DNA of 39,974 nt from Blastocatellia bacterium (GTDB lineage Bacteria; Acidobacteriota; Blastocatellia; DASRDY01). Shown here piece by piece: positions 1 to 34,181 of the stretch. The notes beneath the pieces were generated by a model. That model was given only the letters and a program-made list of their open reading frames with translations. It searched no databases and was not told the DNA's origin. How positions within the stretch are numbered: position 1 is the stretch's first letter; every line of letters starts with the position of its first letter. Made by a program: the position numbers and the translations under genes. Location of the stretch: assembly GCA_035652355.1 (NCBI GenBank), contig DASRDY010000355.1:1-39974 (forward strand), read 5' to 3'.

Positions 1-3000
1 TCGCGCCTTCCACGATCTTCTCCCTGACGCTCTCCTGGTCTGGCGGCCTGACGCTGGCGATCATCACGCGGACGACCACCTTCTTTGCGCTGCTGATCTC
101 GTCGTCGACCACGACCATCGCCCTGTCCGCGCCCAGGGCGACGATCGCCTGCTGCTGCGCCAGCAGCTTCGGCGCCTTCAGCCTGACCGCGAGCTTCCGG
201 TCTTCCACGCTGCGGTCTCGGTCTTGGCGGCGGAGCCGGCAGAGCATCTTTGACGGATAAACCTATTCGACGACGCTCGGTATCAACCTCGATGACTTTG
301 ACCTTTACCTTTTGTCCGACATGGACAGCCTCGTGCGGATCCTTGATGAACTTGCGGCTCAGATGCGATATATGAACCAATCCATCCTGATGCACGCCGA
401 TGTCGACGAATGCTCCAAAGTTTGTGATATTCGAAACGATTCCTTCGAGCTCCAACCCGACTTTCAAATCGCTGATGTCCCGAATGTCTTCCCGGAAATC
501 AACAGTCTCGAACGGCTGACGCGGGTCACGACCTGGATGCCGCAATTCTTCAACAATATCGCGCAGAGTCGGCAATCCCGTCTGCTCGTCGGCATAATCC
601 TGAAGATGAATTTGATCTATCAGTTCTTTGTTGCCTAAAAGATCCTTTACTGAGGTATTCAGCGCAGCCGCCATCCGTTCGACCACCGGGTATTTTTCCG
701 GATGAATCGATGTATTATCCAGCGGATTATTGCCTTCACGAATTCGGAAAAACCCTGCGGCCTGTTCGAAATGCTTCGGGGTGAATCGCGGAACGTTCCC
801 AATTTCCTGTCGATCATTGAAACGGCCAAGATTATTGCGATACCCCGAAACTTCGCGCGCCAGCGATATTCCTACCCCTGATACGTAACTGAGCAATGCT
901 ACAGACGCCGAATTAATATCGACCCCTACACGATTGACGCAGGATTCGACTACGGCATTCAGCGCTCTTCTCAAACGCCCCTGGTCAACATCGTGTTGAT
1001 ACTGACCGACGCCGATGGATCGAGGCTCGACCTTAACCATTTCGGCCAGCGGATCCTGCAATCGCCTGGCGATGCTGATCGCGCCGCGTACCGCAGCTTC
1101 AACTTCGGGAAACTCTTCCCGAGCCGGTCTCGATGTTGAGTAAACGCTCACCCCGGCTTCGTTCACCAGAGCCACCTTCACGCCTTGCATTTCGTGGGCG
1201 ACCTCACGCGCGAGTTGCAGCGTTTCTCTTGAAGCTGTTCCATTTCCAATAGCAATAGTCGAGACCTGGTATTGCCCGATCCACGCACGGAGCTCCGTCT
1301 TCGCCTCATCCCACTGTTTCTGCGGAGCGTGTGGATAAATGCTGCCGTGGAATATGAACTTTCCTGTTTCGGTGACGACGGCGACTTTGCAGCCCGTGCG
1401 CAACCCAGGATTTATTCCAAGAACGCGGACCGCGCCGGCCGGCGGCGCCAGCAAAAGCTCGCTTAAATTCTTCGCAAAAACATCGATGGCATCCGCATCC
1501 GCGCGACGCTTGATTTCGTTGCGCAGCTCGTTTTCAATCGCGGGAAACAGCAATCGATCAAAAGCATCATTGATGACAACTCGCAAAAACTCGGCCGCAT
1601 TAACTTCGCTGCTGGCCGGATGCAGCGATTGCGGTTTCTTTGGTTGTGACTTCACTGCCGCCTGGGTATCCGCAGCCAGTTCAGCAGAAGTTTCAGGCTG
1701 TTCGGGTTGCGCCTCTGTCGATGCCGTTTCGGTCGGAGCTGCTTCAGTCCCGGTGTGGGAACCAGCAACTTCAGTCACTGCTTCTTCAACCGAGCTTTCA
1801 CCCGTGGGGTGCTCCTCTGTTGATTGTGTTGAAGGCTCAGCGTTTTCGGACTGAGAGCCTTCTTCAGATATCGCCTCTGGCGCCGCGCTGGCTGTCGCAG
1901 CTTCAGGAACTGTTTCCACGGCATCCGTGATTTGCGGGTTAACTGTGGTCGGTTCGGCTGCTAACTCGGTCGGCTGCGCTGAGTTTGAATCTGCCGTCGC
2001 TTCTGTGGCTGGCTCCACCTCATCTGTTTCCGCTCCCAACAATGCCGCAGTACTGCTCTCGCTTGGTGGTGAGTAGGGAGCGGCAACATACTTCTCGTTC
2101 AGATAACGCAGCACTTCGCCGCGATCTATCTCCAAAGCAACGTTCAGGAACTTCTCTTTCTCTCCACGCCTTATGGCCAGAAATCTGTGAGAAGGAACTT
2201 CCTTGATCGCCTCGCTGAAGTTATAGAACGATTCGTACTTGCTCCGTTCCGTCTCTTTGCCTTTCGTCGCTTTCGCTACCAGCTTTCCGGATTTGGCAAA
2301 CTGATCTCTAAGGAAACGACGATTTGCGGTATCTTCAGCGATCCATTCCGCGATGATGTGCGCGGCTCCGGCCAGGGCTTGCTGTATCGTGTTAACACCT
2401 CGACGCGGGTTCAGATAGTTTATCCCAAGCTCGTGCAACGGTTCGCAATCACCACGAGTCTCAAAAATCCTCTTTGCCAGAGGTTCGAGCCCGCGAGAAT
2501 GCGCCACTGTAGCCCTGTTCTTGCGCTTCGGTCTGAACGGAAGGTAGATATCATCCAGTTCAGTTCGACTGTTTGATTCGCGGATTCGTTGTTCAAGCTC
2601 GGGCGTCAATTTGCCCAGCGCACCAATCGTCATCAGAACGGCCTGTTTGCGAAGTTCGAGCTCGAACAAAGTTTCCCAACGATCTCTCAGCTCGCGGATG
2701 ACCGGTTCATCCATGCTGCCGGTCAATTCTTTGCGATAACGAGCAATGAACGGCGCAGTCGCTCCCTCTTCCAGAAGCGAAATCAGATTGGTTACGTAAG
2801 TCGATTTTCGCTGAGTCTCTTCCAGCAATCTTCCAAGGGTTTTGGCCATCAACTCGGCGCGAACCTCTGGCGGAAGAGTAATCGGCGCTTCGTGCTCTTT
2901 AGCGTGCTCGCCCGCTGAGGCATCAGTTGATTCGGCTTCGCCAGCCTTGGCGTGGGCTATGCTGGAATCAGACGCAAAGACAGAATCGTGCTCGTGCTCA

Positions 3001-3368
3001 TCGTGACCTCCGGTTTCGTGAGAAACAGCCGTCGGTTCTGCTGGCGCTGCATCTTCCTGAGCCGATGTTTCCTGAACTGATTCCGACGCCGGCTCTGCCG
3101 CCGCAGTTTCAGTTGCCGTTGATTGCTGAGACTCTGTTTCAACAGGCGACTCTGTCGCAGCGGTATCGCTGGCGCTGGCAGGCTCGTCCGCCACGTGGCT
3201 TTCCGATGCGCTCTCAGCCGTAACCGGTGTCGTCTCCTGCGAGCCATTATGCGCGTCGTGGTGAGCATCGTGTTCTGCGGGTTCGGACGCAGAGGCGTGC
3301 TCAGGGACGGAAGCCTCGGTCTCTTTAGCTTCAGGTTGAAGATTTTCGGGCTGTTCTACTTCACTCAT
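1..3368 (-). CDS. tex: Tex-like transcription accessory protein, 3' end runs off the window. It carries an acidic His-rich N-terminal extension, a ~170-aa Glu/Thr/Ala/Pro-rich insertion and an Arg/Gly-rich C-terminal tail.
   Basis: Reading the minus strand from the ATG at 3368 gives one continuous frame. It contains IARYRKELTGSMDEP (Tex N-terminal helical region), VLGINPGLRTGCKVAVV (YqgF/RuvC-like fold), an HhH region, and an S1 domain (GLELEGIVSNITNFGAFVDIGVHQDGLVHISHLS). The frame stays open to position 1. The ORF track omits it because it has no stop inside the window. Confidence 0.8.
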   Translation of the reverse strand, partial: MSEVEQPENLQPEAKETEASVPEHASASEPAEHDAHHDAHNGSQETTPVTAESASESHVADEPASASDTAATESPVETESQQSTATETAAAEPASESVQETSAQEDAAPAEPTAVSHETGGHDEHEHDSVFASDSSIAHAKAGEAESTDASAGEHAKEHEAPITLPPEVRAELMAKTLGRLLEETQRKSTYVTNLISLLEEGATAPFIARYRKELTGSMDEPVIRELRDRWETLFELELRKQAVLMTIGALGKLTPELEQRIRESNSRTELDDIYLPFRPKRKNRATVAHSRGLEPLAKRIFETRGDCEPLHELGINYLNPRRGVNTIQQALAGAAHIIAEWIAEDTANRRFLRDQFAKSGKLVAKATKGKETERSKYESFYNFSEAIKEVPSHRFLAIRRGEKEKFLNVALEIDRGEVLRYLNEKYVAAPYSPPSESSTAALLGAETDEVEPATEATADSNSAQPTELAAEPTTVNPQITDAVETVPEAATASAAPEAISEEGSQSENAEPSTQSTEEHPTGESSVEEAVTEVAGSHTGTEAAPTETASTEAQPEQPETSAELAADTQAAVKSQPKKPQSLHPASSEVNAAEFLRVVINDAFDRLLFPAIENELRNEIKRRADADAIDVFAKNLSELLLAPPAGAVRVLGINPGLRTGCKVAVVTETGKFIFHGSIYPHAPQKQWDEAKTELRAWIGQYQVSTIAIGNGTASRETLQLAREVAHEMQGVKVALVNEAGVSVYSTSRPAREEFPEVEAAVRGAISIARRLQDPLAEMVKVEPRSIGVGQYQHDVDQGRLRRALNAVVESCVNRVGVDINSASVALLSYVSGVGISLAREVSGYRNNLGRFNDRQEIGNVPRFTPKHFEQAAGFFRIREGNNPLDNTSIHPEKYPVVERMAAALNTSVKDLLGNKELIDQIHLQDYADEQTGLPTLRDIVEELRHPGRDPRQPFETVDFREDIRDISDLKVGLELEGIVSNITNFGAFVDIGVHQDGLVHISHLSRKFIKDPHEAVHVGQKVKVKVIEVDTERRRIGLSVKDALPAPPPRPRPQRGRPEARGQAEGAEAAGAAAGDRRPGRGQGDGRGRRRDQQRKEGGRPRDDRQRQAARPGERQGEDRGRR

Positions 3369-3597
3369 GAGCAGATCAAATCCTTAAGTCGTATTTGGGC
3401 GAAATGGGCATTATCTAGCAAAAACCGCTGATTGGCAACCCACGGATTAAAAAGCAGATGAGCCGATTCGACCACCGACAGTTCAGAACGAACGAGGTTC
3501 GAATTCTTGCGCTGAGAAAGTAGCGGGGGGGCAGGGGTCGGGGGTCAGTGGTCGGAGGTCGGCTGAGAACTGTCTCACCCGGTGTCCGTGTCTTAAC

Positions 3598-4277
3598 GTG
3601 ACATCAAATGGCCAAATTCTTCGTTTAAGTTCACTGTCACAGCAGGTGTCACAGTGTTACTTATACACAACAAAGAGCTTGCGTTGCTGTGACAGATGTG
3701 ACATCACTTGGCCAAACTCTGCGATTAATGGCGATGAGCCAGACTAGAACCCTCTTCTCCGACCCTCGATCCCTGACCACCGTTTTGGTGTTATATCCGT
3801 TGCCACAAATTCCGCTGCGACGCTCAGGTGTCACAGTTTTATTCACAGATTTTAAAGAACTTAAGCCGTTGTGACAGGCGTGACAGCAGTTGGCCGAACT
3901 TGGGGGTTCGGTGGGAGGATTCGGTCTGGAACCTTCTTCCCCGACCACTGATCCCTGACTACTAGTCACTGTTTTTGGTGTGACAGCGAATGGCCGAATT
4001 CTGCAGTTTAAGTTCACTATTACGACAGGTGTCACAGCGCTACCTATAGACAATAAAGAAGTTGCGTTGCTGTGACGGCTGTGACATCACTTGGCCAAAC
4101 TCACTCCGCGGTTAGTGTTCGCGGATCAGGATTCGCTTAAGAACCTCTTCCACCGATCACCAATCTCTGAAACCTGACCTCCAGTTTTGGTGTTACACCT
4201 AAAGGCCGGTGAATTCATTATGATACTTAAGCGTCACAGTTTTACTCTCGGAAAACAAAGAACTTGCGTGACAGAGA
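3598..4277. repeat. Nested tandem repeat, about 1.8 copies of a ~382-bp unit, assembled from four recurring modules with GTGACA/TGTCAC cores.
   Basis: The 23-bp module GTGACAnCAnnTGGCCnAAnTnn occurs at 3598, 3698, 3880, 3980 and 4081. Module gtttaagttcact...gttgcgttgctgtgacrg occurs at 3621-3690 and 4003-4078. Module ccyyctycyccgayc...gatccctgac...gttttggtgt occurs at 3750-3793, 3932-3985 and 4143-4198. Module gygtcacagtttta...gaacttr.gcgtgacag occurs at 3828-3877 and 4231-4276. All were read directly from the sequence. Confidence 0.85.
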
Positions 4278-4587
4278 CAAGTGTGGCACTACTTTGCGTG
4301 CCCCGCAGATACAGAATGCTCCCCAAAGCGGGGATGACGTGTCTTACACTATTCGGATGCGCAGCATCCCGCCCCCCGATCGCGCAACCTTGGTACTGCC
4401 TATGCGCTCACCGACGCGACGTTCTCGACGCTCAGTAGGTTGCTTGATGGCGCAGATCACCGCGTACTTTCGCCGCTCGGTGGGTGCTTTGTGGTTTCCT
4501 GATAGCTAGATTTTCTTGGTGTGATAACAGAAAAGAGCAGCCCGATTGCCGCCCTCTCTATTGATCTGTGTATTAACCCTGCCGTTG

Positions 4588-5085
4588 TCATTTGTCTACA
4601 ACCTCGAAGTCTCCCTTCTGTAGCGTGTAACACTTTAGCAAGTAGTGAGCGGAAGGCTTGATGTCTTTGAATTTATCAACATAGGCAATCCCACCTAGCA
4701 CGGGTTTTTGTGAGTCTTTCTCCCGTATCACTGGCGCTGTCGAAACAAACTGGTCGTAGGTTTGATCGCAGCTAGCGTTTCGTGTCACCTTTAACCTTAG
4801 CAGTGGCGCGTTTTGCAATAACTCATCTGTAATATCGGTATGGTCATAGTGCCGATACTCGACCTTGATTATTGTGGGCACCTGGCCCTGTTTAATAGAC
4901 TCTATCCTCATTAGAAATGCTTCTTGGTTTGGAACATCAGCCCCAGGACCTCCCTGCATAACCGTGTCGCTCGGACGATAAGCGATTATCCTGGCGCTAA
5001 TCGTTGTTTTGCCCTTAAAGACAATTCCAGAGGCAATAACCGTGAACATTAGGACCGTGGAACAAACTCGTAGAGATCTTCTCAT
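4588..5085 (-). CDS. Putative RHS-associated immunity protein, 165 aa, with an N-terminal signal peptide or membrane anchor.
   Basis: It lies 54 bp downstream of the RHS toxin gene on the same strand. The N-terminus MRRSLRVCSTVLMFTVIASGIVF is hydrophobic. A GGAGA sequence sits 8 nt upstream of the ATG. The sequence looks AT-richer than its surroundings. The immunity role is inferred from position only. Confidence 0.5.
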   Translation of the reverse strand: MRRSLRVCSTVLMFTVIASGIVFKGKTTISARIIAYRPSDTVMQGGPGADVPNQEAFLMRIESIKQGQVPTIIKVEYRHYDHTDITDELLQNAPLLRLKVTRNASCDQTYDQFVSTAPVIREKDSQKPVLGGIAYVDKFKDIKPSAHYLLKCYTLQKGDFEVVDK

Positions 5086-5139: not shown

Positions 5140-7896
5140 TCAAAATCCGCCTTCGGAATAGGGGTGTCCAATGTAACGGTAATTCTCAGTTATTTTGGTC
5201 CCAGCGATTGCGGTGTTGCCTATCATGCCGATTACCAAAGTCCCTCCTTGAATCACTGATGTATCAAATTTTGGAAATTCATTAAATCCAGGAAACATGG
5301 GGTTAACACGCACGTGTGCATCGTCATGGCTCATCCCTGTAGATTCATAATAGCCTTCAAGGGTTTCATGTCCCACCAATTGCGCTGATGTAACTCCTCC
5401 GGCATTTTGAGGTTGATCCAAAAGCTCGGCTTGGCCAAACGCGATAGTGTGCGTTCCATGATGATCTGAATTGCCGAACAAAATCGACGAGTCTGTTGCG
5501 CCATCTATTGCGTGAATTGTTACATGATGTTTTGTGTCCGTTATTGCGTTGAAGATTTCTTTATCTCCGCCACTCAATGTCTTGCCTAATGCTTTTAAAT
5601 CCTTATTGCTTAATTTATTTCCTTTCGCGTCGACAATAATCACTTTGCCTTTTTCATTTGATATTTTAAATGAGGCGTCCTGTTGAAGGCGCTTATAATA
5701 GTCATCCGCTCTCGCGCCATCGACCGAAATATCAAGTCCGGTTGGATCCGTAAATTTCAACGGATTGTTGCGGGTGTAGGCATAGAGATTCAGTTGCTGT
5801 GGATCGCTCAACCTCTTCATTTCAATGTAAAGCGGGTCCGATGAAGTGAACCTTCCTTGGCTGTTCGAATAGTACCTGGCCTCGAAGTAATCCAGACCAG
5901 TTTCAGCATCTCTCTCTTTGCTAGTAAACTGCTGTCTTGCAGAGTCGTCCTGCGGGAAACTCAGATACTGCATTGACGTTGACCTGATGTTGTAAGGATA
6001 CGTTCCTGGTCCGATCAGTATCTCTTCCCCGAACGGCATGTAATCGTGCTTGCTGTAAACCGCTCCGCTCGAATTTGTAATCATCCTTATCGATCCCAAA
6101 TGATCAGCTGTCAAAAAGAGCGTCCCGTTTGTCGAGTCAACGGTAGCCAGTAAACCGTTCACACCATATATATACTCCTTCTTTAGACTGCCGCTCGTCA
6201 TATCGCATTCCATTAACAGCTCCCCACCGATTCCGTACACCATATACCTATTCGTTTGGCTTGTCGAAATTCGACGTCCTTCTCCATCGTAATGGTAAGC
6301 GAATCCCAGATTCACTGGTGCCGGTTGCGGATGAGTCGGGGTCGGTCGATTTGTCACACTGGAATAAAGACTTGCTCCAGCCACATAGTCTCCAAGCACT
6401 AACCGGTTCTCTGCATCGTAAAAATAGTGATGTCGACCATCATAGATAACATTCCCGGTCGCATCAAAGGTGTGTTCGATTACCCGATTGTCAGTCGCAG
6501 AGAAATTATTATCCGGCAACTGTCCTGATGTCGGTGAAATCGCGTCGGTCCCACCGGTTAAAGTCGAATCCGATGCAGCCGCGGTAAATGATGGATCATC
6601 AAAGTCACTGTCGTCATAGGCCACAATCAATGAAACATCATAGTTGCCGTTGTTGACATCATCCACACCCCTGGCGGTTAGATTGAGTGTTGAGCCAAAA
6701 ACTGTGGCAGTTACCGGCGAGTAATCGTCGCTATTGAGGTTATTCGCCAAAGCAACGGCCAACAGATGACTTGTGTTATTTGTGCTGCCGTCGTAATAGG
6801 CGGTCGTCTCGTAGCTGTTTATTTGGATCGTAATATATCCGCTATCTGCCGAATCTGATCCTGAACAGCCGAAAAGTGTATCTTCAGAGCACTGCAGCTC
6901 ACCACCGATAGACACGCTTCCGACCGCCAGAGATTCCGATGTGCCTGTGCTGGAGGCCGTTAATTTGGAACGGTTGCCGTATCTGTCATAGCCAAAGTTT
7001 TGCTGCCACACAATGTGGCTTCCATTGGTCTCCTCAGCCATAGTCAGGCGATTCAGCGAATCGTAGGTAAAATCCTGATTGATCGTCTGCGAGCCGGCGG
7101 AAATCGTAGCCGCTGTTACATTGCCGTTGTTTGCACTTGTTGTTCCGTAGGTGTAGCCCAGTTCCAGGGCGGAAGTTAAGGCTCCGCTTGTGCCGAGTTC
7201 TATGTATGTGGGCTGCATACGGCTGTTATAAATGATCGAATGGATCAATCCGTTGCCGAGGGTCTGTTGCTGCAAGGCTCCATTTGGCATGTATTGTATC
7301 GTGCTTGTTGAGCTGCCGGCGTAATACGGACTGTTACTTGGCCCGTGTATCTTCGTAATTCTTCCGGCATCATCATAATCTTTGTTCACAACCCTGCTGG
7401 ATGGTGACGGGTATGTATCGCTGGTAACTTCGCCGGCTTTATTGTATGAAGCCGAAATCGTGTAGTTCGTACTGTTGGTGCGCTGGACTTTGGTAACAAC
7501 CTCGCCAAGCAGATCATAACCATAATAGTTGCCTTCGGCCGACGAAGATGATGTGCCATAGGTCACCGCAAGCAGGCGTCCGTACGACGCTCCGTGGGTG
7601 TATGTGGGTGCGCCGCTCGGCAATGTCTGAGCATCATAATAATAATAAATGTTTGGTGTCTTACCGTCATTGTAAGTCTTGGTTTTGACACGATTCAATT
7701 GATCGTACGTCATACTGGCAGTTACATTGCCGCTGATAGCCGGCCGTTGATCGGATTTGCTCGTCAAATTTCCGTTATTATCATAAGTATAATTAATCGT
7801 GTGGCTTTCTGGATTTGTTGCCGAGGTGAGCCGCGAGAGACTGCTATAAACAAAGGTGCGTGTCTGACTTCCCTGAGTTACTCCTGTCAAATGCAA
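5140..7896 (-). CDS. RHS/YD-repeat protein, N-terminally truncated, 918 aa. It keeps part of the repeat core, the PxxxxDPxGL end-of-core motif and a ~200-aa His-rich C-terminal toxin-type domain.
   Basis: There are many YD repeats, for example NYTYDNNGNLT, FGYDRYGNR, FTYDSLNRL, HYFYDAENRL and YHYDGEGRR. The hallmark core terminus YAYTRNNPLKFTDPTGL is followed by a variable tail containing HHVTIH, DHHGTHT and GHETLEGYY. The frame begins with TTG directly after an in-frame TAA at 7897-7899, so the N-terminal part is missing. Confidence 0.8.
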   Translation of the reverse strand: MHLTGVTQGSQTRTFVYSSLSRLTSATNPESHTINYTYDNNGNLTSKSDQRPAISGNVTASMTYDQLNRVKTKTYNDGKTPNIYYYYDAQTLPSGAPTYTHGASYGRLLAVTYGTSSSSAEGNYYGYDLLGEVVTKVQRTNSTNYTISASYNKAGEVTSDTYPSPSSRVVNKDYDDAGRITKIHGPSNSPYYAGSSTSTIQYMPNGALQQQTLGNGLIHSIIYNSRMQPTYIELGTSGALTSALELGYTYGTTSANNGNVTAATISAGSQTINQDFTYDSLNRLTMAEETNGSHIVWQQNFGYDRYGNRSKLTASSTGTSESLAVGSVSIGGELQCSEDTLFGCSGSDSADSGYITIQINSYETTAYYDGSTNNTSHLLAVALANNLNSDDYSPVTATVFGSTLNLTARGVDDVNNGNYDVSLIVAYDDSDFDDPSFTAAASDSTLTGGTDAISPTSGQLPDNNFSATDNRVIEHTFDATGNVIYDGRHHYFYDAENRLVLGDYVAGASLYSSVTNRPTPTHPQPAPVNLGFAYHYDGEGRRISTSQTNRYMVYGIGGELLMECDMTSGSLKKEYIYGVNGLLATVDSTNGTLFLTADHLGSIRMITNSSGAVYSKHDYMPFGEEILIGPGTYPYNIRSTSMQYLSFPQDDSARQQFTSKERDAETGLDYFEARYYSNSQGRFTSSDPLYIEMKRLSDPQQLNLYAYTRNNPLKFTDPTGLDISVDGARADDYYKRLQQDASFKISNEKGKVIIVDAKGNKLSNKDLKALGKTLSGGDKEIFNAITDTKHHVTIHAIDGATDSSILFGNSDHHGTHTIAFGQAELLDQPQNAGGVTSAQLVGHETLEGYYESTGMSHDDAHVRVNPMFPGFNEFPKFDTSVIQGGTLVIGMIGNTAIAGTKITENYRYIGHPYSEGGF

Positions 7897-33900: not shown

Positions 33901-34181
33901 TATCAGTCCTCCGTACGCGTTAACATTTCCTGATTTTCGCCGCAAGGGTCCGGCATAGTCTGACCAACAACCGTGCCACTGCTGAGCTCCCGTTTAACCC
34001 TTTACTATCAAGGGGTTAAGCGGATCCGCAACCGGAATTAGTTTCGCGGAGGTGCCCGTTTCTGGGAAAAAATTTTCCCGCTACTGAAAAGTGTCAGAAT
34101 CGAAAGTGTCACAGTCAGGTCCAACTGTTTTGTCACGGTTTTACAATTGATGTTGACGAGGCGTGGTCATGGATTATTCAA

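Follow-up and report, generated by a model that had tools for sequence, protein, structure and literature searches.

What is the nested tandem array that occupies the gap between tex and an RHS-repeat gene in contig DASRDY010000355.1 of a soil acidobacterium, Blastocatellia bacterium (GenBank assembly GCA_035652355.1)? The window we analyzed is the whole stretch of 39,974 nucleotides, and the gap in question extends from position 3369 to 4587. An initial annotation had described a 23-bp module that recurs five times in this gap, and had offered an array of transcription-factor binding sites, a structured non-coding RNA or a repetitive element like a MITE (miniature inverted-repeat transposable element) as possible readings. 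We conclude, with moderate confidence in this package as a whole, that the array is a local four-copy tandem cluster of an old, dispersed family of non-coding repeats, here called E (125 bp), joined by a C-rich linker (S), and that E probably acts as double-stranded DNA recognized by protein.

The five exact copies of the module (pattern GTGACANCNNNTGGCCNAA) start on the forward strand at 3598, 3698, 3880, 3980 and 4081, precisely as the initial annotation had placed them, whereas 0.20 matches are expected in shuffled sequences. The box TGTCACAG occurs seven times in the window (0.88 expected), six of them within 3635–4086, and the pair at 3635 and 3647 displays the 12-bp direct-repeat spacing that had been noticed inside the modules. 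Alignment of 3598–3979 with 3980–4300 at 79% identity bears out the described 382-bp higher-order repeat of about 1.8 copies. Beyond the five exact modules, positions 3788 and 4190 carry degenerate copies and position 4281 a remnant, and the copies are linked by direct-repeat families of 138, 65, 31 and 12 nt. A better and simpler parse of the array is therefore four units of approximately 190–208 bp, each composed of E and a C-rich linker S of 65–87 bp. The array had rightly been set apart from CRISPR arrays: the modules are spaced irregularly (100, 182, 100 and 101 bp), and the would-be spacers are themselves repeated. The gap was also correctly called free of open reading frames (ORFs), as it contains no credible one. 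A coding function was considered and rejected: the repeat lengths are not multiples of three, and neither the 130-aa ORF that crosses the repeats (3661–4053, reverse strand) nor the neighbouring small ORFs have a Pfam match.

All four units lie on the forward strand. E1 (3598–3721) is a full copy, matched by nhmmer over positions 1–125 of a hidden Markov model (HMM) with 101.5 bits; pattern matches place its first end module M1 at 3598–3619, followed by a linker, the TGTCACAG boxes at 3635 and 3647, the centre, the right arm at 3687–3703 and M2 at 3698–3719. The linker S1 (3722–3787) contains CCCTCTTCTCCGACCCTCGATCCCTGACCACC, ends with GTTTTGG, and was delimited by direct-repeat family D1 and by linker identities. 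In E2 (3788–3902) the first module is degenerate (GTGTTA...TTGCCACAAATTC, read from the sequence), while the centre, the right arm and M2 (at 3880) are intact (nhmmer 3802–3902, HMM positions 25–124, 80.7 bits). After S2 (3903–3979) follows a second full copy, E3 (3980–4102; HMM positions 1–123, 100.3 bits), and then S3 (4103–4189), both linkers being recognized by direct repeats and linker alignment. E4 (4190–4300) is the most decayed copy (nhmmer 4194–4294, HMM positions 3–113, 33.3 bits). Its first module is degenerate, it has one GTCACAG box, at 4233, and its last module is cut to GTGTGGCACTACTTTGCG (4281–4298); a copy of direct-repeat family D2 spans 4233–4297 with 72% identity. Upstream of E1, at 3519–3562, an inverted and G-rich copy of S can be recognized by inverted repeats I1–I3 and by a Tandem Repeats Finder period of 7. 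It consists of five heptads GGGGGTC that are complementary to the core CCGACC..GATCCCTGAC found in S1 and S2.

The identities between these copies reveal how the array was built. E1 is closer to E3 (86%) than to E2 (73%), and S1 is likewise 82% identical to S3 and 70% to S2. This pattern indicates that the array arose by two successive local tandem duplications, an older one of E+S and a younger one of E-S-E-S. An independent short-read assembly (L002, Logan contig of SRR5581483; contigs and loci are denoted by L numbers) ends inside E3 at window position 4031, as expected for a multi-copy repeat.

To what extent is this unit found elsewhere? A 19-base pattern that spans the right arm and the module, TGTGACNNNNGTGACANCNNTTGGCC, was searched for in the JGI metagenomes and occurs at 46 loci, 41 of which lie on 39 long contigs of metagenome Ga0070741. 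In 380 kb of such loci plus the window, an HMM of the 125-bp E returned 72 matches in 48 clusters of one to four copies each. Three other metagenomes contain weaker copies, and hence more than one population harbours the family. Tandem arrays with C-rich linkers are also present at L132, L141, L152, L154 and L168, and at L148 the linker is a REPIN, a pair of inverted repetitive extragenic palindromes (REP). What comes after E at most loci is unrelated sequence and not S. The nearest kin of the window copies are those at L132 (86–88%), where the flanking genes differ. The 165-aa ORF beside the window array has no homology to the ORF beside the L132 array, which argues that the arrays were not carried with a common gene. 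The search of viral, plasmid and phage collections gave no match to E. A scan of 596 Gb of genome contigs with a 14-base piece of the module, in which about 4,000 chance matches are expected, returned 115 loci with single matches in unrelated phyla and none with E.

Two further sequences were observed in relation to E. At L136:9776–9830, L161:6822–6870, L162:2910–2962 and L129:4719–4760, E is followed by another module, GATTTTTGTGCCAC, which continues with two or three TGCCAC/TGGCAC boxes about 10 bp apart; these are reminiscent of sigma54 sites, with a spacing that is too short. At 34086–34145 of the window (forward strand), three GTCA-type boxes (GTGTCAG, GTGTCACAG and TTGTCACGGTTTTAC) are found in the gap from which a MacB-like permease gene and an AMP-binding/acyltransferase gene diverge. 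The HMM has no match there, and the boxes may be a decayed fragment of E.

To establish whether the dispersed copies belong to the genome of the window, we looked up the exact sequences of the window proteins Tex, the 165-aa ORF product and phosphomannomutase, of two REP-associated tyrosine transposases (RAYTs), and of eight proteins that flank E at L131, L132 (VFC63_10275), L134, L135, L136, L141, L144 and L156. All of them carry accessions between HZS43634 and HZS49173 and belong to a single NCBI third-party-annotation metagenome-assembled genome (MAG), that of Blastocatellia bacterium; the locus tags shown by three hypothetical proteins of this look-up all have the prefix VFC63_. Shared membership in this MAG means that the genome of the window itself contains the modules in multiple, dispersed copies, which settles the genome-wide search that the initial annotation had called for: the modules are not single-copy. 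The same result bears on the idea of a one-off duplication of the tex or RHS regulatory region without any wider significance. Local duplication did occur, but the unit is present at more than 40 other loci of the same genome, and because of this dispersal we regard the idea as refuted, with a negligible probability left to it.

We then turned to the question as to what these copies have in common. The ends of E are sharp in the stacked matches: the element starts with GTGACA, directly after (g/c)T, and ends with TTGGCCaAAyTC. Read from left to right, it is composed of the 22-bp end module M, a linker, a pair of TGTCACAG boxes, the conserved centre of 33 bp, a pair of inverted GTGACA boxes and M once more. 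The left part reads GTGACAnCAnnTGGCCaAAyTC, followed by 18–27 nt and then tGTCACAncagGTGTCACAGcg; the right part comprises the centre (TTA..ATAGA.A..AAAG..CTTA) and then cTGTGACnnnnGTGACAnCAgTTGGCCaAAyTC. E contains five GTCACA boxes (one, then two inverted and, past the centre, two more), TGGCC boxes and an A/T-rich conserved centre.

The copies are old. Pairwise identities have a median of 67% and a maximum of 88%, which speaks against a recent burst. Nevertheless, the changes are distributed very unevenly: among the 105 alignment columns of 57 copies that are not fixed by the search pattern, 22 carry more than 1.5 bits and 16 less than 0.3 bits, whereas a uniform-decay model with the same mean affords 0.9 columns (at most 6) above 1.5 bits and none below 0.3 bits. 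The motif blocks of E are nearly invariant, and the spacers between them are saturated with changes. The same contrast is visible at a single locus, the cpsB–rpoD region in two samples (L134:1–1700 and L138:820–2922), where the flanks are 100% identical and the boxes of E are intact while the spacers differ. At this locus a patch of about 500 bp around E has approximately 65–70% identity, and cpsB contains another diverged patch, of about 60 bp. These patches suggest mosaic recombination between diverged lineages, which the repeat loci possibly favor.

Such constraint could also reflect an RNA, either tandem small RNAs (sRNAs) or a single structured non-coding RNA; S would then be the body of the RNA, and the box region would supply the promoter. 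Tandem units of about 200 bp do resemble tandem sRNA genes, the G-rich strand of S carries GGA-type motifs, and Rfam gives one weak match. The structural evidence is of a different kind. Rfam 15 has no match at the gathering score in the window; the best sub-threshold match is Ocean-VII (12.5 bits versus a gathering score of 53.5, E = 1.9), and the next in the gap has E = 5.7. Fold z-scores of E and S on both strands, between −0.3 and −1.7 relative to shuffles, are unremarkable. The arms of E pair only across the invariant 6–8 bp box, and complementarity stops at the box edge. In 64 aligned copies, two candidate stems show single-sided changes and no compensatory pair. Moreover, no terminator follows S, S is poorly conserved, and at most loci it is absent after E. 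We therefore abandon the structured-RNA proposal of the initial annotation as very improbable. Block-wise conservation without covariation is instead the pattern expected from sequence-specific recognition of double-stranded DNA.

Several more specific readings of the conserved blocks and of S were tried and rejected. By eye, the spacing of the blocks fits none of the sigma54, sigma70, extracytoplasmic-function sigma factor, sigma28 or integration host factor (IHF) sites. A candidate sigma54 promoter at 4284 (TGGCAC TACT TTGC) has N4 where TGGCAC-N5-TTGC (GG-N10-GC) is needed, and M is equally short. A CsrA/Rsm-type sponge or an anti-Shine–Dalgarno sRNA in S was dismissed for want of a terminator, of good conservation and of a structure signal, and a tRNA or att site because the window contains no tRNAs. 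S was also compared with the GGGGWSAS motif of acidobacterial TIRYT inverted repeats (PMC3733652); one exact match was seen by eye, GGGGTCAG at about 3539–3546, and as a single match it was treated as chance.

How could E have spread? The MITE-like reading is correct insofar as E is a dispersed repeat, but E is not a MITE in the strict sense, because it lacks terminal inverted repeats and target-site duplications, and no related insertion sequence (IS) was found in the loci examined. Both ends consist of the same 22-bp module in direct orientation, with the inverted boxes in the interior; 43 full copies have no shared flank that would indicate a target-site duplication; and no long repeat or IS is common to the loci in 380 kb.

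We also examined the Y1 transposases of this genome, since RAYT-like members of this group occur in Acidobacteria (PMC3733652). With sequences from that study we found a RAYT-like gene at L154:6956–7630 (HZS48838.1), which contains the HUH motif. Homologues of its product are named REP element-mobilizing transposase RayT, and its Pfam Y1_Tnp score is below threshold. The surrounding segment of the window's MAG (L154:6816–7786) is a REPtron in which the RAYT is flanked on both sides by hairpin pairs of about 100 bp, family R, a GT(A/G)G-tagged repeat (GCGCATTCGTCCCGATTGCGC). Directly upstream of this RAYT stand two E copies and part of a third. Another REPIN family, H (GTGGCGCAGACATTCAGTCTGCGC), is present at L134, L140, L148, L156 and L161, and the repeats of both R and H start with GT(A/G)G. 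An R or H REPIN directly adjoins the M2 end of E at L134, L138, L140, L148 (two cases) and L155; degenerate versions of this junction occur at L147 and L154. Alternation of REPs with other motifs, as in bacterial interspersed mosaic elements (BIMEs), is found at L148, where an H REPIN links E copies, and at L134, L138, L140, L154 and L155. E thus takes part in BIME-like mosaics with the REP/RAYT system of this genome.

E itself is not a REP. It forms no imperfect palindrome of 20–40 nt with a stem-loop, its fold z-scores being −0.45 to −1.67, and does not end with the tetranucleotide GTAG (or CGTC), and the L154 RAYT has R REPINs on both sides and E upstream only. No E was found within 10 kb of the second RAYT paralogue (VFC63_19925) or of RAYT loci in other Blastocatellia. 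As separate observations, an IS200-type TnpA gene (L152:6111–6599, reverse strand, Y1_Tnp E = 1.7e-23) within L152:5900–7050 has an unrelated direct repeat (about 170 bp) on either side, and at L170:8602–10702 a group II intron-type reverse transcriptase gene (RVT_1 and GIIM) lies directly upstream of the second RAYT paralogue.

These findings allow us to weigh the possibility that E is a selfish, non-autonomous element, mobilized by a Y1 (HUH) transposase of the RAYT or IS200 type or by another recombinase. The boxes would then be enzyme recognition sites, and the location near promoters would mark where insertions are tolerated. The genome encodes at least two RAYTs and an IS200-type TnpA, and the position of one RAYT immediately downstream of E copies, the contacts between E and REPINs, the kinship of window and L132 copies despite different flanking genes, and the lack of terminal inverted repeats and target duplications, which is typical of HUH-mobilized elements, all agree with this idea. 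On the other hand, pairwise identity does not go beyond 88%, so that recent transposition is not indicated, the hairpin and the GTAG tag by which RAYTs recognize their targets are missing from E, the RAYT is flanked by R REPINs rather than E, and the other RAYT loci are devoid of nearby E. Neutral decay after insertion would also not keep the boxes in every old copy. On balance we consider a purely selfish element rather unlikely.

We next consider the genomic positions of E. Of the 36 clusters with neighbours on both sides, 17 lie between divergent genes, 17 between tandem genes and 2 between convergent genes. Accordingly, 34 of the 36 adjoin a gene 5′ end, compared with an expectation of 75% (p = 0.003). 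In the tandem regions the first module faces the 5′ end of the downstream gene 12 times and the opposite way 5 times. Strong sigma70-like matches on the first-module side run outward from 7 of 42 clusters and inward at 1; as at tex, E usually lies upstream of the promoter of its neighbour. The genes next to E are unrelated in function and include those for Tex, RuvB, L13, GcvT and CpsB (whose locus has RpoD on its far side), as well as GAF kinases, a tricorn protease, VWA proteins and a dipeptidase, among others. Outside E, GTCACAG occurs 44 times in 0.53 Mb where 65 are expected, and inside E 146 times in 12 kb. Unrelated neighbours and a box that is not enriched outside E show that this is not an ordinary regulon.

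Could E nevertheless be a host regulatory module? In the mycobacterial OmpR-family regulator MtrA, the binding box is a direct repeat of GTCACAgcg (PMC4285127; PMC13189361), as also stated in PMC2945938, which cites Rajagopalan 2010. The paired GTCACAG boxes of E may accordingly be read as dimer sites for an MtrA-type regulator of the OmpR/PhoB family or for a nucleoid-associated protein, in which case dispersal of E would have wired about 50 promoter regions (such as those of tex, rpoD, ruvB, rplM and gcvT) to one protein. This alternative overlaps with our preferred explanation and differs from it by asserting a regulatory function for the host. It draws on the direct repeats of GTGTCACAGcg, 12 bp apart on one strand and about 9–10 bp on the other, on their likeness to the MtrA box, on the motif constraint in each copy, on the location upstream of sigma70-like promoters, and on the concentration of the box in E. 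It does not account for the TGGCC blocks and the 33-bp centre, nor would an ordinary regulon have neighbours without a common function and a box at chance level elsewhere. Both box pairs point inward and not at the flanking promoters, and MtrA is an actinobacterial protein, so the 9-mer resemblance across phyla is only a lead. We are doubtful of a host regulatory module for these reasons. The site array for OmpR- or LytTR-type regulators that was initially envisaged is compatible with the data: conserved blocks, saturated spacers and a match to the MtrA box are present, but a functional regulon and enrichment of the box outside E are not.

We also examined the immediate surroundings of the window array. 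The tex gene (1–3368, reverse strand; Pfam Tex_N, Tex_YqgF, HHH and S1) runs off the window, has its ATG at 3368, and faces the first module of the array with its 5′ end. Its sigma70-type promoter, TTGCCA-17-GATAAT (3410–3438, reverse strand; 10 of 12 positions in the promoter scan), lies between the array and the gene, outside the repeat. In the nearest relative found through Tex homologues (L118/L119; Tex 67% identical in amino acids), the genes downstream of tex are syntenic, while upstream there is a 229-bp gap followed by a nitroreductase gene and no array. The only part of the window gap that aligns to L118 is a 41-nt segment around the tex promoter (83% identical). It follows from this comparison that the array is lineage-specific and lies upstream of an independent tex promoter. 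Tex itself has 1149 residues, with an acidic low-complexity extension of about 175 residues ahead of Tex_N that is shared with a 1121-aa relative (P0002); typical Tex proteins in the match list have 720–790 residues.

On its other side, the array is located exactly at the synteny break beside the RHS module. The decayed end faces the 3′ end of the 165-aa ORF VFC63_29095 (4588–5085, reverse strand), which lies downstream of the gene for an RHS-repeat protein (5140–7896, reverse strand; Pfam). The initial annotation placed both flanks of the gap correctly (tex start at 3368, end of the ORF at 4588), but its term "immunity-like" for the 165-aa ORF is a positional assignment, since this protein has no Pfam match. 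The segment 4588–7896 with both genes is absent from the nearest relative (compared with L118:9158–10000). Just past the decayed end of the array, at 4284–4335 (forward strand), two hairpin-capable stretches, GGCAC-N8-GTGCC and CCCCGC-N21-GCGGGG, stand side by side; being downstream of the 165-aa ORF, they may form its terminator region. Pfam also confirms a hybrid histidine kinase and a protoglobin-type methyl-accepting chemotaxis protein in the window. The remaining window genes serve ordinary metabolism and the envelope, and no transposase or integrase is among them.

Taken together, we favor the following scheme. E would function as double-stranded DNA that is read by one or more sequence-specific proteins, rather than as RNA or as a hairpin. 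Its past spread may have been driven by a recombinase or transposase acting in trans, or by recombination, and the copies would persist because a host protein or the mobilizing enzyme still binds their boxes. The window array begins at a distance of 160 bp upstream from the conserved tex promoter and borders the RHS island. Its effect, if any, would be that of an upstream protein-binding platform or of a recombination-prone boundary, not that of the tex promoter itself.

A number of points weigh against this scheme. Assignment of the dispersed copies to the MAG depends on binning, and the check covered nine of the 47 clusters outside the window. The neighbour genes were called crudely, as longest ORFs, and the orientation bias in the tandem regions (12 versus 5) is weak (p = 0.07). 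The window contains neither R nor H nor any other REP or REPIN, its linkers being S, and for this reason the analogy to BIMEs depends on other loci. Finally, the constraint pattern could also arise without a host function, if many master copies were selected for mobilization only.

In its most far-reaching form, which we regard as speculative, the protein-recognition scheme would make E a domesticated repeat that serves as the standard platform of one global DNA-binding protein, an MtrA-like regulator of the OmpR family or a nucleoid protein. Each E would offer two opposed dimer sites and a half-site; about fifty unrelated housekeeping promoter regions would be wired to this protein, and the copy number per locus (one to four) would tune its occupancy. 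If that protein were indeed a regulator, E would represent a bacterial case of regulatory-network rewiring by the spread of a repeat. There is also a practical aspect: arrays of this type break short-read assemblies, and in annotation they can pass for CRISPR-like arrays or sRNA loci.

How does E compare with known systems? With respect to the MtrA boxes of Mycobacterium and Streptomyces, the GTCACAgcg sequence is identical, and the boxes are likewise direct repeats a few bases apart. The E consensus tGTCACAncagGTGTCACAGcg contains a GTCACAgcg-like direct repeat separated by about 5–6 nt; its best-conserved block is GTGTCACAGcg, with a second TGTCACA 12 bp upstream and a pair about 9–10 bp apart on the opposite strand, a resemblance at the level of sequence. 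The differences are that Blastocatellia belong to another phylum, that the boxes of E are embedded in a 125-bp repeat with other conserved blocks, and that E has neither a regulon-like set of genes nor isolated boxes elsewhere.

Dispersed intergenic repeats are well known in Proteobacteria and Firmicutes. Our full-text literature search found no description of such repeats in Blastocatellia. E is unusual among them, because it has no hairpins or terminal inverted repeats, is located beside gene 5′ ends, and keeps its boxes almost invariant although the copies have otherwise diverged to about 67% identity, an argument for a protein that still reads each of them. Like the mycobacterial interspersed repetitive units (MIRUs, a class of variable-number tandem repeats), E is one unit that forms tandem arrays of one to four copies at many dispersed intergenic loci. 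MIRUs are located inside operons, and small ORFs overlapping the ends of genes can be part of them, whereas E lies upstream of promoters and has no reading frame.

The BOX, enterobacterial repetitive intergenic consensus (ERIC) and Correia elements, which measure about 100–150 bp and are often found near promoters, resemble E in length (about 125 bp), in their modular build with a variable number of modules, in their intergenic location and in the lack of coding capacity. They differ by their terminal inverted repeats or long imperfect palindromes, where E has a direct 22-bp module at its ends, and Correia elements have TA target duplications that E does not show. To the BIME, REP and REPIN–RAYT systems of Proteobacteria, E is unlike in that it is not palindromic, has no GTAG or CGTC tag, and exhibits neither hairpin stability nor covariation; the RAYT is flanked by R REPINs instead of E, and the window array is free of REPs. 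Furthermore, the REPs of E. coli are located mainly at gene 3′ ends, whereas E lies beside 5′ ends. In other respects the likeness is close. Both are short, high-copy, non-coding and extragenic, both form local clusters with mixed orders of modules, and both have kept their motifs across old copies; this genome contains REPIN-flanked RAYTs, and E often abuts the REPINs. The BIMEs of E. coli are protein-binding DNA, recognized by IHF and gyrase. The E family is comparable in kind to the mosaic repeat clusters, BIME, BOX and ERIC, of other bacteria.

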